This document shows, in pieces, positions 37,887 to 43,918 of a DNA stretch of 64,000 bases. The translations under genes and the position numbers were made by a program. Below the pieces are notes generated by a model, which saw only the letters and a list, made by a program, of their open reading frames with translations, was not told where the DNA came from and did not search any database. The DNA lies in contig CAVWIG010000021.1 in assembly GCA_963754945.1 (NCBI GenBank), positions 32,001 through 96,000 of the forward strand. Reading direction: 5' to 3'. The stretch is from Methanotrichaceae archaeon (GTDB lineage Archaea; Halobacteriota; Methanosarcinia; Methanotrichales; Methanotrichaceae). Numbering within the stretch: the first letter of the stretch is position 1; the number at the start of each line of letters is the position of its first letter.

Positions 37887-39297
37887 CTGTACTTTCCAAC
37901 TTTTTCGTATATTTATAATATCATCAGATTAAATTAGAATATAAATTTAATAAAAAAAAATAAAAAGTAAGGGTTTTATACTAGGATCAAATTCTCTCTT
38001 TTGGGAGTAGAATGATCAAAATAATAAAGGTACCATTACAATTAGAGCCGTTCTTGAATGAATTTCAGGATCTTTTTACGAAACCGAGTTATGGATCGTT
38101 TCGAGATTTGTGTGGAGCGTTAAGCGTGTGTGATAAATCCAAGACCGTTTCCAACCTTTGTGATACTATGGCCGAATGTAGGAAAGGAAAAAAAGCACGC
38201 TCTTCGTACAATTGGTTCTTTAGCGATGCGAATTGGGACGAGGATGAAGTTGCTCAACGCAAAGTGGACCTTTTTATTGAGAAATTATGTTTAAAAGAAA
38301 ATGATAGAATGTTGTTAATAATTGATGACACATACAATGAGAAGGAAGGAACTCAAACGGAAGGTGTAGGAAAATTTTATGATCATAGTAAAGAAACCTA
38401 CATTTGGGGTAACAATTTTGTTACCTCTGTTATCCAATCCAAAGGATTATTCATACCACATAAAGCTAAGATGTATATCAAGAATGATGACGAAAATGAG
38501 AATTTTAGAACAAAAATGGAGATTGCCTTGGACGAGATCATTGAACCATTAGAAGTACCAAAAAGCATGGACCTTTATATCGTTTTCGATAGCTGGTGGT
38601 TTTCTTCTGATCTCTTTAACAAGTGTCTCAAATTAGGGCATAATATAGTCTGCCAAATCAAATCTGATAAGAAAATCAGGATAAATAAGGACATGTGTTT
38701 TCAGGTTAGAGACTTAGCAAACCAAATTGAGGATAAGTATTTTATTAAGACAACTATTAGTGTTCGGGGCAAAAAGAAGACCTACTATGCATTTGAAAAG
38801 AAGGTAGTCATAGACAAGGTAGGCGAAGTTAAACTTGTAGTCTCAAAGAGAAAAAAGGAGAGCACTACAAAATATTTTATAAGCACTAATGAATCGCTTT
38901 CGTCGAAAGAAATACTCTCAATTTACGAGGATAGATGGGATATCGAGACGGCCCACAGAGAGACAAATCAAAAATTAGGATTCAAAGATTACCAATTAAG
39001 AGAAAAACAATCAATTGAAAGATTTATTCAGCTAGTCTTCTCAGTATGGACTGCGATTCTCTTATGGGAAATAGACAATCCGCCATCTGGGGACGGTTCA
39101 AATCCAAGAACTATGGGCGACATGATCGACCTAGTAAAAATGCAAACATTAGGTGAAACATTTGAATATGTGCTGATGTATTTTAATATACCCGTACCGG
39201 AAGGCGGATTGCTTTATATACTCAGAAGCATGGGATTGAAAATATAATTTGATATAATTTAGAAAATATAAATAAAGGAGAAACTTGGAAAGTACAG
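37887..39297 (+). mobile_element. IS701-family element
   Basis: TIRs CTGTACTTTCCAA / TTGGAAAGTACAG; direct repeat AACTATT on both flanks; AT-rich. Confidence 0.9.
38012..39247 (+). CDS. IS701-family DDE transposase
   Basis: IIDDT, FDSWW, YEDRWDIETAHRETNQKLG. Confidence 0.88.
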   Translation: MIKIIKVPLQLEPFLNEFQDLFTKPSYGSFRDLCGALSVCDKSKTVSNLCDTMAECRKGKKARSSYNWFFSDANWDEDEVAQRKVDLFIEKLCLKENDRMLLIIDDTYNEKEGTQTEGVGKFYDHSKETYIWGNNFVTSVIQSKGLFIPHKAKMYIKNDDENENFRTKMEIALDEIIEPLEVPKSMDLYIVFDSWWFSSDLFNKCLKLGHNIVCQIKSDKKIRINKDMCFQVRDLANQIEDKYFIKTTISVRGKKKTYYAFEKKVVIDKVGEVKLVVSKRKKESTTKYFISTNESLSSKEILSIYEDRWDIETAHRETNQKLGFKDYQLREKQSIERFIQLVFSVWTAILLWEIDNPPSGDGSNPRTMGDMIDLVKMQTLGETFEYVLMYFNIPVPEGGLLYILRSMGLKI

Positions 39298-39419: not shown

Positions 39420-40103
39420 GTGGATTCGAAAGGGGACAGTCATTTGACATCGTCGTCCGATCTTGGAAGGGATCTTCAAAAGTTAAATCGCATGCTTCAA
39501 GCGGCACACAGAAGCTCCATCGATATCAAGAACAGTTATGACTTCTATGTTTTGGCCGTCAAAGAGATGAACAAAGACAACATATCGGATGCATATCTGT
39601 ACTGCGATCGATCAAGATACGAGCTAACCAATGCTGTGAATGATGCCAAGGTGAACTTGAAGGGAGTGAGGCTCCACAGCCTTAGATCGATCTCTTTTTT
39701 CTTCAAGCTCTACGGCTTGTACGCAGTGGTCTTCGGAATGCTCTCCACCCTTCTGTTCGGTTTTTTGATCTACCGCTATTCCGAACTCACAATCCTGGAT
39801 GTTCCTCTGTGGGCATCCTTTTTTGCAGGCCTCGGATCATCGGCGCAGATTCTCTCGGGAGTCGTTGACGACCTGCGAAAGGAGGGCGCGGTGATAAGGT
39901 ATAAAAGGGTCTGGTATACGGCTATCCCATTGCTGAGCCTGATATTCGGATACATGGCATACCTGCTATTTAGTTCAGGTCTAGTTGCCTTCAACGTGAA
40001 CTCCCAGAGCAAGATCTTCTCATCCATGTTCGTCTGCTTTCTGACAGGGTTTTCCACAAATTGGCTCATCGATAAGCTGTCAAAGATATCCAATAACCTT
40101 TGA
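39420..40103 (+). CDS. Hypothetical membrane protein (four C-terminal TM segments)
   Basis: Helical N-terminus, hydrophobic C-terminal half; TATAAATA upstream. Confidence 0.6.
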   Translation: MDSKGDSHLTSSSDLGRDLQKLNRMLQAAHRSSIDIKNSYDFYVLAVKEMNKDNISDAYLYCDRSRYELTNAVNDAKVNLKGVRLHSLRSISFFFKLYGLYAVVFGMLSTLLFGFLIYRYSELTILDVPLWASFFAGLGSSAQILSGVVDDLRKEGAVIRYKRVWYTAIPLLSLIFGYMAYLLFSSGLVAFNVNSQSKIFSSMFVCFLTGFSTNWLIDKLSKISNNL

Positions 40104-40228
40104 GGTTTCCGTCAATGACTGATGACTTGAGAGCTAATTTTCACAGTGTTTTTGGATCTCAGACTGCATGTTCATTTATAGCAGACGAAAGACCGCAAAA
40201 TTTATATCGTTGAATGCCGTATCACGGC

Positions 40229-40419
40229 GATTGCCGTAAGATTAAAAGGGTAGGTGAGTGGGGATTGAGTCTACCAAACGATCGATCCGGCTGCCTTGAA
40301 GGGCACGCTGGTCGATCGTTCTTCGGCATCTATCGAATAGACCTCAACTTAGGCTTCGGACACGAACCGATGTCTCAGAGCTAATCCTGAAAGCGCATCG
40401 CACGGAATGCAAGACAATT
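40229..40419 (+). ncRNA. Candidate novel structured RNA (~190 nt), possibly also a 39-codon sORF
   Basis: BRE/TATA (CGCAAAA-TTTATAT) at 40194-40207; nested helices whose G-U pairs work on the plus strand. Confidence 0.5.
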
Positions 40420-40423
40420 GAAT

Positions 40424-43400
40424 TTAGGGTATCACAATCTTTCCTCGATCTGTCCTTATCATGTTGTGGTTGTTCCTGAAATAGGCCGGAGAGATCTCCG
40501 GGCTGGTCCAAGCATCGGTGATGTTGCCGATCTCAGTTCCGTTCAGTTTCAGGCTCAGATCTTTCAGGTGAATCTGGGTTGCATTGTTCATGATTATGAA
40601 CTTGGCGGGATTGAACTCCAGGACCATGGTCCTGTTTCCTGGCTCAAGTTTGGTGGTGTTTGTGTCTTTGCCCAAGTCATTCCCGCTATCGTCCTCGATC
40701 CTACCGTTCAGGTTGTAGGCACCGGCCTTGATCACTCGCACCCCCACTCCAATCCCGATCTCGCCTGTCTTTGTAAGGTTTGTGAAGTTTCCATTAAAGT
40801 AGGCTGCAGGATGTTGGAACTCCTCAGGATTTCTCTGGATGATTATGCTCTTGTTATACTTGCCCAAGAGATCTCCGTTTTCATTGTACAGGAACAGGCT
40901 GGGGATCGCCAGTGGCCCGCAAGTGCCACTCTTCCATATCTCCTCTCCGTCTACGTCTATGTTTACGTCCCCGCTCTTCTGAAGGCTAGATGTACCTTTC
41001 AGCCACTGTATCCTATTGCCCCTACAATCCACAAGAGCGCCCTCCACTGTGTAGTTTCCTGGAGACGTGACGTTGACTGCGAATCCGAGGGTCAGTTTGT
41101 CAAAGTAGCCGTCTTTATCCAAGTCTACGACCTTAGAGTAGTTCAAACCATTCAAGGACGAGCCAGCTACGGTCAATCTTATCGGAATCGTGAAGGATTG
41201 ATTGGCAGATCGGATCTCTAAGCTTCCATCGACGACGCTGCTGGTTGCATTAACTGGAATCTTGAGGCTGGCGTCAACCGTTGCACTCGACTCGCTCTCT
41301 ATACTCGCAGGCCCTTTTGTTGAGACCCAGGTCCAATTCCCTTGCAGATAGCGCGATATTTCAACGCTGAAGGACTCGTTGTGATCCGATGGCACATTGT
41401 TGCCGTAAATCCATATCCTCCACTTCCCTGGCTCAGGTCGTATCACTTCTGGTGATCCCGTTGTTTCTGACCCAACAGCCGCATAAACTCTCTTGGCTTC
41501 GGGATCGAGAAGAAGAAAGGCGATATCTCCATTTCCATCCTCGGCGCTCATGTTCGCAGAAATCCTGCTGGTGCCGTTTGGCACATCAAAGAACTTCTCC
41601 TGCAGGTCCTTCCTCCCGATCGACCCTTTGAATTCCAACATGCTCGCGTTCTCTACAGAACCGGTATAGCTGATGTTGCTCAAGGCTGGGCCTCTGTTTT
41701 CAAACTTGAACTGGGCAGTGACTTTGCCGCCGGGAACCACAGATCCAGCGTTCCAGATCTTGGGATTAGTTTCCACCAAAGACTGCTCGAAACTCAGCGT
41801 GTAGTTCACGGGTTCCGTCAGGTTCCTGGCGTGAACGGCCACGAGCCAGCGGCCCGATGGCGGGTCCGTTATGTCCACGGTATCCGCCAGGGAGGTTCTT
41901 TCACCGGCGTAGTACTCGCTGGTGGGGGACAGCAAGAAAAGATCCAGGTCAGCGCTCTGCTTCCAGCCGAGCCTGGACATGAGCTCGCTTGTGCCTAGGG
42001 GCACGTCCAGGTAGTAATACTGCCATTTGATTCCATGAAGATCATTCACTTTGACTGCTCTTCCTTTCTGGATTTTGATGGGCTCGGCGATCAATGCCGC
42101 CACGGGGACGGATGAGATGATCTTATTGCCCTCCGCTATCTCTATCGAGCCATTGTACTCACCGGCTTTTGTCCCGTTGGGCACGCTCATTGTGGCACCG
42201 AAGACCTTCTGGCCGTTGGCCGGAACGCTCTTCGGAAGGGGCTGAAGGGTGACCCAATCAGATATGTCTCCTTTAACTGTTGTACTGATGTTGTTCCTCT
42301 CCTTGTTTGTGAAGAAGACGAACTGGTTTGTGATCTCATCATCATTGGGGGCAAGAGCATAGATTTTCTTCAGAGGGCGGTCTGCGCCCGTGTCTAAGCC
42401 TACATACAGCCCCTTACCGGCAGAAAGGTAAGCCCAGCGGCCCGCATTCCAAGCATCGGGCATCACGCCCGAAATGTCTGATTTCAATAGACTATAAGAC
42501 TGGTTCGCGTCCAGCCTTCCCGCGCCTTGATAGTACTCCTCGTAGGTCTCCCCTTGGCTGTTGTTGAGCTTCTTAGCGCCTAATATCATGGCAGCCTTGA
42601 CACCAGCGGGCGTTAGGCTGGGATCCGCCTGAAGTAACAGGGCAGCCAATCCAGCCGCAACCGGCGTGGAAAGGCTGGTGCCTGATGCCTTGGCATAATA
42701 ACTATCGATGTAATTGGGCTGCTCGAGGCCCGGCGGAACCGTTGAGACAACATTTACACCAGGAGCGACCACGGACGGCTGGGTCCTTCCATCTCTGGTG
42801 GGCCCTGATCCGCTGAAGCTAGCGATGTGGTCGAAGAAATCTGATGCGCCCATGGTGATTACCTTGACTCCATCGCCTGGAGAGTCTATCAGGCCAGGGG
42901 CCAAGGGCACATAGAGCAAGAGCAATAGAACATCTCTGCTCGCCCCATTCGTCTGGGATATGTCGAACTTTCCTAGATCGATTGGACTGCTCTTGCCTTT
43001 GGTCTTGACAAGTGTGCTGGCACCTGCCAAACCCTGGGATTGAGTGTTGTTGCGATTACCGGCCGCGACGCACACAACCGCTCCTGCGTCCACGGCATTA
43101 TCCGCTGCCATGGTCACTGGCGGATTAGTCTCCCCCAAATTCATCCCTCCCAGGCTAAGGCTCAGAACCTTCGCATTATTATCAAGGGCCCATTCCATCC
43201 CAGCGATGATGTCCGATATCTTTCCGTTTCCTTTCTGGTCTATCACTTTCACATTCAACAAGCTGGCTCCGGGGGCAATCCCTCTGTACTTTCCACCAGA
43301 AGCGGCACCAGAACCGGCAATGATCCCAGACACCAGGGTTCCGTGCCCTAGAAGGTCGTCCGTGGTGGTCTCACCCTCCACGAAGTTCTTCTCGCCGACC

Positions 43401-43918
43401 ACTTTTCCTGCAAGATCTGGATGGTTCTCATCGATCCCAGAGTCCAGAATGGCCACGATCACACCTTTTCCATCTATTCCCTTTGACCAGAGCGGTTCGG
43501 CGTTGATCTTATCCGCAGGGATGACTGTGCTATTCCCAGGCGCATTGATGTCAGGCCCTGCCACGTGAGTTGAACTATCCAGGTAAACTCCTTTTATGGC
43601 ATCACTGACGGTTAGTTTTTTGATAGCAGAAGGACTGGCATCCCCTGCTACACCCTTGATCAAGTGATATCTGTACCTGACTTTCAGGTCACCCAGATCA
43701 GGCATGTCCTGGCTTTTGGCTATTACGATTACCGGTATCTCATTCTCATTTCCATTGTCTAGAAGCTTTTGCAGAGCCGGATCAACTGTTGGCACGGATG
43801 TTCCTGTCCGATCAGAAGACGCCGATGCTAGAACTGGTGATGATGACACATAGGAGGCCAGCAGAAGCAGGCCTGCTAGAGTTGCTGCAGAGATCAAGAA
43901 AATTTTTTGCTTATCCAT
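40424..43918 (-). CDS. Secreted S8 subtilisin-like serine protease with C-terminal accessory domains
   Basis: Signal peptide; ILDSG, GHGT, AAGN, SGTS triad motifs. Confidence 0.92.
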   Translation of the reverse strand: MDKQKIFLISAATLAGLLLLASYVSSSPVLASASSDRTGTSVPTVDPALQKLLDNGNENEIPVIVIAKSQDMPDLGDLKVRYRYHLIKGVAGDASPSAIKKLTVSDAIKGVYLDSSTHVAGPDINAPGNSTVIPADKINAEPLWSKGIDGKGVIVAILDSGIDENHPDLAGKVVGEKNFVEGETTTDDLLGHGTLVSGIIAGSGAASGGKYRGIAPGASLLNVKVIDQKGNGKISDIIAGMEWALDNNAKVLSLSLGGMNLGETNPPVTMAADNAVDAGAVVCVAAGNRNNTQSQGLAGASTLVKTKGKSSPIDLGKFDISQTNGASRDVLLLLLYVPLAPGLIDSPGDGVKVITMGASDFFDHIASFSGSGPTRDGRTQPSVVAPGVNVVSTVPPGLEQPNYIDSYYAKASGTSLSTPVAAGLAALLLQADPSLTPAGVKAAMILGAKKLNNSQGETYEEYYQGAGRLDANQSYSLLKSDISGVMPDAWNAGRWAYLSAGKGLYVGLDTGADRPLKKIYALAPNDDEITNQFVFFTNKERNNISTTVKGDISDWVTLQPLPKSVPANGQKVFGATMSVPNGTKAGEYNGSIEIAEGNKIISSVPVAALIAEPIKIQKGRAVKVNDLHGIKWQYYYLDVPLGTSELMSRLGWKQSADLDLFLLSPTSEYYAGERTSLADTVDITDPPSGRWLVAVHARNLTEPVNYTLSFEQSLVETNPKIWNAGSVVPGGKVTAQFKFENRGPALSNISYTGSVENASMLEFKGSIGRKDLQEKFFDVPNGTSRISANMSAEDGNGDIAFLLLDPEAKRVYAAVGSETTGSPEVIRPEPGKWRIWIYGNNVPSDHNESFSVEISRYLQGNWTWVSTKGPASIESESSATVDASLKIPVNATSSVVDGSLEIRSANQSFTIPIRLTVAGSSLNGLNYSKVVDLDKDGYFDKLTLGFAVNVTSPGNYTVEGALVDCRGNRIQWLKGTSSLQKSGDVNIDVDGEEIWKSGTCGPLAIPSLFLYNENGDLLGKYNKSIIIQRNPEEFQHPAAYFNGNFTNLTKTGEIGIGVGVRVIKAGAYNLNGRIEDDSGNDLGKDTNTTKLEPGNRTMVLEFNPAKFIIMNNATQIHLKDLSLKLNGTEIGNITDAWTSPEISPAYFRNNHNMIRTDRGKIVIP

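Follow-up and report, generated by a model that had tools for sequence, protein, structure and literature searches.

Positions 40104-40423 of a 64,000-nucleotide (nt) stretch of contig CAVWIG010000021.1 from a Methanotrichaceae archaeon, referred to here as the window, form a gap between two convergent genes, a plus-strand gene for a protein of 227 amino acids (aa) and a minus-strand gene for a 1164-aa subtilase. In this gap of an uncultured peat methanogen lies a real, conserved and promoter-bearing element (40194-40426) which is probably a small RNA gene specific to one genus. An earlier note on the DNA had proposed at this place either an undescribed non-coding RNA with its own promoter or an mRNA for a small protein. 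The former is the reading that best fits the promoter, the upstream terminator, the conserved, stable and single-copy core and the lack of an Rfam match, whereas a conserved small protein was not supported. All of the evidence for the gene is computation on sequences, and conservation was judged from three lineages of one genus (g1), namely the genome of the window (G000) and two other species of Methanotrichaceae (G001 and G002).

The B recognition element (BRE) and TATA box reported earlier at 40194-40207 were found again. The promoter consensus TTTATAT-N-CGTTGAATGYCG was matched 14 times in the genome of G000 and once by a reversed control, and a looser scan gave 24 sites. Over positions 40192-40229, G000 differs from each relative at 3 of 38 positions, and G001 and G002 are identical (0/38). 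By analogy with related promoters and with the type I and type II small-RNA genes described below, transcription is predicted to start at about 40231, 24 nt past the last T of the TATA box. The distance from the TATA box to the start was identical in 28 of the 30 related promoters compared, the start sequence (A/U)UGCCGUAA, conserved in related promoters, lies there at a constant distance from the box, and in the type I/II genes invariance begins 23-24 nt after it. Ahead of the promoter, the two T runs at 40138-40153 are likely to be the oligo-T terminator of the 227-aa gene. At the other end, a T-rich stretch (40418-40425) is a possible 3' end of the RNA, and the GCAT/ATGC hairpin pointed out before is present just ahead of it (40395-40410), with GCA/UGC replaced by GCC/GGC in the relatives.

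The first 115 nt of the predicted RNA, its core, adopted the same three-branch minimum-energy structure (P1, P2 and P3) in all three species. The z-scores were -3.94, -4.13 and -4.07, and none of 200 shuffled sequences folded as well in any of the three. In this predicted fold the junction is closed by P1, in which the 5' end of the RNA lies buried, and P3 corresponds to the long hairpin that had been noticed before, with strands at 40278-40296 and 40301-40319. Changes in P3 comprise one compensatory replacement of G-C by A-U and one of G.U by G-C, and a G inserted in G001 and G002 pairs with a U that is bulged in G000. No covariation is seen in P1 because eight of its nine pairs are invariant. 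In a tally of the core structure, 98% of the cells were paired. The wobble pairs are indeed G.U on the plus strand, three of them invariant and a fourth in G000 only.

Other parts of the structure first drawn for this RNA fared less well. The sequence of the small TTCGG...TCGAA hairpin is there, and so are TTGAGTCTA and TAGACCTCAA, which were thought to enclose both hairpins; the stem between them, however, is absent from the minimum-energy fold of all three species. A three-way junction closed by 40265-40273 and 40338-40347 finds no support in the relatives, in which the 3' strand changes at 40338 and 40343-40345 and leaves A.A and A.G mismatches. In its stead P1 forms, with 40232-40241 pairing with 40320-40328. 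The proposed second domain (40342-40426) had a z-score of +0.14 in G000, where 102 of 200 shuffles were as good, and of -1.67 and -1.42 in G001 and G002, with folds that differ between species. Folding beyond shuffled controls was therefore found for the core (z about -4) and modestly for the whole 211 nt (z -2.29, 2/200 shuffles as good), but not for the second domain.

The distribution of the element was narrow. Full-length matches occurred only in G001 (87%) and G002 (82%), first among 61 relatives and again among 105 genomes of the family. A covariance model of the core found three of the 105 genomes plus one match at chance level (E 0.92), and BLAST of the same genomes gave outside the genus only a chance-like match of 26 nt. 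When metagenomes were scanned with an invariant 19-mer, 27 stretches were retrieved, of which two (L064 and L070) were true homologues, both near-identical to G002, and 25 were chance. The element had no match in the phage, plasmid and viral contig collections searched. Multicopy occurrence as a miniature inverted-repeat transposable element (MITE), named beforehand as a result that would speak against a novel RNA, was not found: the element is single-copy in G000, G001 and G002, and in G000 only its promoter part recurs. Its position and orientation are the same in all three species. In this genus the gap between the flanking genes measures 314 and 328 nt. In other lineages it is 61, 61, 74 and 100 nt at four loci that do not have the element, 325 nt of unrelated sequence at one locus, and, at three loci that have an additional gene, about 1075 nt; at one further locus (L035, CAZXDN010000003.1) a 190-nt gap has about 100 bases masked as N. 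Judged from these alignments, the element is an insertion specific to one genus of Methanotrichaceae, because it is confined to that genus and the same gene pair occurs elsewhere without it.

The core also diverges slowly. Between G000 and its relatives it differs at 12 of 117 positions (G001) and 12 of 119 (G002), the range over all pairs being 9-12 of 117-119. For the 3' tail the corresponding counts are 19/79 and 34/83 (24-41%), for the spacer upstream 29/89 and 42/91, and for the 4-fold degenerate sites of the two flanking genes 83/489 and 95/482 (17-20%). When promoter and core (40192-40345) were taken together and compared with the 4-fold sites, the counts were 15/155 against 83/489 for G000 and G001 (p 0.016), 15/157 against 95/482 for G000 and G002 (p 0.0017), and 9/157 against 97/476 for the third pair (p 3.5e-6). 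This corresponds to about half the rate of 4-fold sites and to a rate 3-4 times below that of the flanking spacer (p 1e-5 to 8e-13 for the latter comparison).

We read the region as non-coding, with no conserved open reading frame (ORF). AGGTGA followed by TTG at 40265, put forward previously as the start of a 39-aa frame, is present and invariant; a conserved small protein is not, as the frame shifts. Its lengths are 39, 27, 31 and 27 aa in G000, G001, G002 and a fourth sequence (M070), with only the first five residues in common, and the shifts come from single-base indels that track helix P3 and not codons. A 56-aa frame from 40214 shrinks to 11-12 aa in the relatives and has no Pfam match. 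Apart from the TTG frame there is no plus-strand gene between 40231 and the subtilase gene, and a cis-regulatory 5' leader or riboswitch does not fit, the next gene being convergent and no same-strand gene being there to regulate. As the earlier note had supposed, the RNA belongs to no known Rfam family (riboswitch, SRP, RNase P, snoRNA or known sRNA): at the gathering thresholds of Rfam 15 the window gave no match at all, a search of 40050-40500 up to E 10 returned only a 13-nt noise match (11.8 bits, E 3.8), and ARAGORN confirmed that there is no tRNA.

One peat metatranscriptome run (X1), which is stored as contigs, contained 0.07 of the sampled words. Its contigs, derived from relatives, extend over 40253-40426 (176 nt, depth 3.3) and over 40260-40342 as well as over both flanking genes, and the one over 40260-40342 continues into G002-like sequence. 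The uncovered stretches, 40231-40252 and 40427-40472, coincide with strain-variable sites, so this coverage says nothing on the ends of the RNA.

Table 1. Features of the locus and the two partner genes, with coordinates in the window unless a contig of G000 is given.
Feature	Position	Strand	Basis
BRE/TATA box cgcaaaatttatat	40194..40207	+	fits the promoter consensus of the genome
Conserved spacer from TATA box to start, CGTTGAATGCCGTA...	40208..40230	+	related promoters
Conserved 5' core, 115 nt	40231..40345	+	stable fold in 3/3 species; slow divergence; covariance-model matches confined to genus g1
P1, 5' strand UGCCG.AAGA, pairing with 40320-40328 (UCUU CGGCA)	40232..40241	+	minimum-energy fold, 3/3 species
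G-rich site AGGGUAGGUGAGUGGGGAUUGAGUC in hairpin P2, including Shine-Dalgarno-like AGGUGA and TTG at 40265	40247..40271	+	conservation, duplex energy
Hairpin P2, predicted to present the G-rich site	40249..40275	+	minimum-energy fold
TTG-initiated 39-aa frame, judged non-coding	40265..40384	+	frame comparison in relatives
Long hairpin P3, 18 pairs in G000, loop UGAA	40278..40319	+	minimum-energy fold
Small hairpin UCUAU-CGA-AUAGA after P1	40329..40341	+	fold; one pair broken in G001
Fast-evolving 3' tail with small terminal hairpin (40395-40410) and T-rich stretch (40418-40425) overlapping the S8 stop codon	40346..40426	+	
T4 run 40138-40141 and T5 run 40149-40153	40138..40153	+	read from sequence; T-rich also in G001 and G002
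Upstream neighbour, 227-aa protein conserved across Methanotrichaceae	39420..40103	+	12 related loci, 68-98% aa identity
Convergent neighbour, 1164-aa subtilase (Peptidase_S8)	40424..43918	-	convergent partner of the 227-aa gene, 11/12 related loci
Type I small-RNA gene (L137, A6)	G000:C24:66530-66610	-	promoter, invariance; 10 aligned genomes
Type II small-RNA gene (L138, A7)	G000:C18:40405-40490	-	promoter, invariance; 10 aligned genomes

The G-rich site in P2 is invariant in G000, G001, G002 and M070 except for one inserted A. The motif GGTAG-N1-5-GAGTGGGG contained in it occurs five times in the genome of G000 (once for the control) and in 104 of the 105 family genomes. Searching for the 16-mer with at most two changes also gave only five sites in the genome; one seems to be a chance match within a coding region, and two, near 66555 on contig C24 and near 40430 on C18, are hairpin RNA genes on the opposite strand. 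These genes, designated type I and type II, share one build, with a conserved promoter, a variable spacer of 23-24 nt, an invariant GAGCGGGUA stem, a variable part of the loop and an invariant C-rich stretch of 26 nt (type I) or 36 nt (type II). Neither has an Rfam match.

Duplex energies of the site with the type I and type II loops were -32.6 and -36.4 kcal/mol. Among 2000 random genomic 196-mers the means were -14.3 and -16.4 kcal/mol, and the fractions that reached the observed values were 0.001 and 0; G001 and G002 gave the same picture. After the cost of unfolding both RNAs, the net cofold gain was -11.2 and -12.2 kcal/mol, values reached by 3 and 2 of 100 dinucleotide shuffles. At the level of sequence, the element carries what a decoy or sponge should have, a conserved complementary site stronger than background, with the strand of the partner inferred from promoter position. 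RNAduplex runs with whole small RNAs were discarded as they produced long-loop artefacts (fractions 0.25-0.64). A search with the complements of four exposed segments turned up no convincing site in an mRNA, and neither the 5' untranslated region (UTR) of the subtilase mRNA (fractions 0.26-0.35) nor the start of the 227-aa gene showed special pairing with the type I/II loops.

Further sequences in the family resemble parts of the element. The profile of promoter and core matches the promoter and 5' leader of a gene for a secreted 759-aa TPR protein (G000:C19:8837-8965, E 4.1e-5), a leader (G000:C19:8837-9001, L073) that is present in 44 of the 105 family genomes. The two have in common the promoter consensus, the start (U/A)UGCCGUAAG, a comparably spaced G-rich motif GGGUAGG..GAGUGGGG, and complementarity to the type I/II loops. 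On the other hand, a ribosome-binding site (RBS) and a long ORF follow the TPR leader and none follow the element, and the hairpins differ. In the TPR leader a site of about 28 nt, upstream of the RBS AGGAGAGUGA, is near-perfectly complementary to the type I/II loops (-45.7 and -46.8 kcal/mol). Tested against loop or tail motifs of other small RNAs, the TPR leader was above background for five of six (fractions 0.002-0.051), the sixth giving 0.215.

Separately, a promoter-driven short RNA candidate was seen at G000:C8:40625-40745 (L118, L139), in which one hairpin shows GGUAGUGGAGUGGGG and a second has GGGAGGGC and GCCCUCC. Its pairing energies with the type I/II loops are -34.0 and -36.2 kcal/mol, and G001, G002 and G076 have the motif copy as well. 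At L083, L085, L093 and L101 in genus g2 and at L013 in G028, about 100 nt ahead of an aroA gene (5-enolpyruvylshikimate-3-phosphate synthase) that seems to be leaderless, there are leader-only units, each of which combines the same promoter with a hairpin at the 5' end, GGUAGAGGAGUGGGGG and stretches rich in T. About a dozen promoter-driven hairpin units of some 65 nt, with CCCUCCUAC loops and CCUCCCUCCUU tails, were noticed in G000 (among the loci are C28:199107-199555, C14:10629, C34:33143, C20:51047 and C7:17437), some of them at the ends of IS200-like elements (C15:22394). The element in the window shares its promoter type with these units and with the type I/II genes, which consist likewise of a promoter, a hairpin and an exposed C-rich stretch. 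In contrast, the element is three times longer, single-copy, genus-restricted and G-rich at the conserved site, and it is complementary and not homologous to them.

Across the family the promoters follow an architecture CCGCAAAG-TTTATATT-CGTTGAATGYCGTA, seen in the window at 40208-40239 and in 30 related promoters. At the predicted start a string ATG CCG TAA (with the variants TGA and TAG) is common among 33 related promoters. A mini-ORF ATG-CCG-TAA was considered and rejected, as variants in G120, G019 and G028 keep the hairpin and have no stop or no start; the string probably arises incidentally from a 5'-terminal hairpin GCCGU...ACGGC.

The reading that we favour, and to which we give an even chance, is that 40194-40426 is the gene for a functional, genus-specific non-coding RNA whose core offers the type I/II RNAs a docking site. 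An RNA of about 195 nt would be made from the plus strand by its own archaeal promoter, the gene having been inserted between the convergent pair. Its functional part would be the first 115 nt or so, and the 3' tail a variable spacer leading to the T-rich stretch at the subtilase stop codon. The G-rich, Shine-Dalgarno-like sequence in P2 would base-pair with the invariant C-rich loops of the type I/II small RNAs, and the RNA would in this way act as a decoy that titrates them, or else come under their control. The same loops also match the 5' leader of the TPR gene and one further small RNA in G000. What we infer from these features is that the RNA is transcribed, where its ends lie, that it pairs in the cell and that it has a regulatory effect.

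Several observations weigh against this reading. No more than three lineages are independent, and the pairwise tests, in which the same lineages recur, are not independent of one another. The type I/II partners were found by searching for the motif itself, so that the complementarity rests on a strand assigned from promoter position, and the independent evidence for them is promoter geometry and invariance. Their duplex with the site is interrupted at its centre by a U.U or U.C mismatch, the P2 stem takes up half of the site, and the loops of five other C/U-rich small RNAs in G000 were not above background (fractions 0.10-0.36). By z-score the minus strand folds equally well (-2.97 for the 211 nt, -3.8 to -4.6 for the core). 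The structure cannot be proved by covariation, since 38 of the 42 pairs never vary; one of the 42 is compensatory, and 331 of 500 shuffles scored as high. The T-rich 3' stretch is weak (T3-T4), and the transcript may therefore run on into the subtilase gene. The metatranscriptome data are contigs, not reads, and unstranded, and DNA carry-over is possible, so that they show presence in an RNA library only. Finally, without the promoter the similarity to leaders is not significant genome-wide (best foreign match E 0.37, contig C19 not among the matches), and within a set of 30 leaders it is weak (E 0.01 for G108 and 0.075 for the TPR leader).

Among the other explanations, we consider it unlikely, although less so than the rest, that the element is an evolutionary relic, that is, a promoter and 5' leader copied from a gene such as the TPR gene, with the coding part lost and any RNA still transcribed being functionless. 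In favour of it is the profile match to the TPR promoter and leader. The order of TATA box, UGCCGUAAG start, G-rich motif and hairpin is the same in both, no plus-strand gene lies downstream, the 3' tail evolves at the speed of spacer, and comparable leader-only units occur upstream of aroA in other genera. However, a dead relic should not show promoter and core evolving at about half the rate of 4-fold sites in all three pairwise comparisons, indels and substitutions in P3 keep the pairing, and the TPR similarity loses its significance in the genome once the promoter is left out. Less likely still is regulation in cis, in which the promoter would fire at the convergent subtilase gene and act through collision or 3'-end overlap, the RNA structure being secondary. 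The weak T-rich stretch overlaps the subtilase stop codon and makes read-through plausible, the element occurs only here, adjoining the subtilase gene, and after the subtilase stop no strong T run is met on the minus strand before 40244-40247 or 40196-40199. Yet the constraint spans 115 transcribed nt beyond the promoter (9-12 changes in 117-119 positions), in other genera the two genes manage without the element, and the subtilase 5' UTR has no special complementarity to the partner small RNAs.

It is quite improbable that AGGUGA and the TTG at 40265 start a peptide of 27-39 aa, gated by P2 or by the C-rich small RNAs. AGGUGA does match the anti-Shine-Dalgarno end of the organism's own 16S rRNA (GGAUCACCUCCUAA) at a distance of 6 nt to the TTG, neither of the two varies among the three species, a frame of 27-39 aa is open in all of them, and the site predicted for the small RNAs includes both the Shine-Dalgarno sequence and the start codon. 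These points are outweighed by the frame shifts and by indels that follow P3 described above. We hold it for even more improbable that the region is the 3' UTR or terminator of the subtilase mRNA on the minus strand, the apparent TATA box being a T-rich terminator. The equal z-scores of the minus strand would fit, as would a minus-strand hairpin followed by CUUUUAAUC at 40248-40240 in G000 and the sequence ATATAAATTTT at 40207-40197. The TATA region, however, corresponds in plus orientation and with correct spacing to promoters of genes elsewhere; on the minus strand the G.U pairs of the plus strand would turn into C.A; G001 and G002 do not keep the T4 run that the minus strand has at 40244-40247; and the minus-strand core folds 8-10 kcal/mol more weakly than the plus strand. 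A remnant of a mobile element, whether a MITE, the end of an insertion sequence or a viral fragment, is hardly credible. The element is an insertion relative to other genera, a DDE transposase gene (38012-39247) lies 1 kb upstream, and promoter-like ends of IS200-type elements in G000 resemble its promoter, but it occurs once in each of the three genomes, at the same position and in the same orientation, and the phage, plasmid and viral collections hold no match.

As for the surroundings, the 227-aa protein has no Pfam match and is of unknown family. Together with the large S8 subtilase it makes up a convergent pair that is retained in 11 of 12 Methanotrichaceae loci (L034-L045). The transposase gene directly upstream of the 227-aa gene encodes 411 aa and is of the ISC1217 or DDE_Tnp_2-like kind.

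Archaea of the Methanothrix family produce a large share of wetland methane. In limited literature searches, none of the titles listed dealt with regulatory RNAs of the Methanothrix/Methanosaeta family or described an archaeal sponge RNA. The main significance of the element lies in its possible link to an RNA-RNA network extending over the whole family. A wider and speculative version, which we think unlikely, is that the Methanotrichaceae have an undescribed network in which two family-wide C-rich small RNAs are met by changing G-rich docking RNAs (leaders of secreted-protein genes, the aroA leader-only units, the RNA on contig C8 and this 195-nt RNA), the 195-nt RNA being a dedicated decoy that sets the level of free C-rich RNA. 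If that were true, the element would be the first RNA of the sponge type to be proposed in archaea. If the docking reading holds, the 115-nt structured RNA and the two C-rich RNAs of about 60 nt provide a testable pair with which RNA-RNA regulation in the family could be studied, and the locus would show how a small-RNA gene can arise by the insertion of a promoter-leader unit between two genes. Were the element only a relic, it would be an ordinary finding.

Known systems offer three points of comparison. The small-protein-encoding RNAs (spRNAs) of Methanosarcina mazei are short transcripts that contain, as here, a Shine-Dalgarno-like site together with a short open frame (bioRxiv 10.1101/2025.10.28.685009; PMC11456600); the reading frame of this element is not conserved. 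Sponge or decoy RNAs are familiar from enterobacteria, where 3'ETS-leuZ and SroC are examples. The element differs from bacterial sponges in belonging to another domain of life with no Hfq-type context, and titration is here something that we infer. In Staphylococcus aureus, SprY is reported to titrate RNAIII (PMC8501977). The conserved feature in such RNAs is, as in the element, a binding site for a regulatory RNA and not for an mRNA. The nearest counterparts are sRNA154, sRNA162 and sRNA41 of M. mazei, intergenic small RNAs whose anti-RBS loops mask the ribosome-binding sites of mRNAs and whose expression and targets have been shown experimentally (PMC5867862). The RNA of the window has no sequence or Rfam relation to these; it carries the RBS-like, G-rich side and would itself be bound by C-rich RNAs, and it is known here from sequence alone. 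It resembles them in coming from a methanogen of the same order-level group and in being an intergenic archaeal RNA gene, and it would share with them its own promoter, stable stem-loops, conservation within a genus, and an expected pairing that involves RBS-like sequences (PMC5867862).

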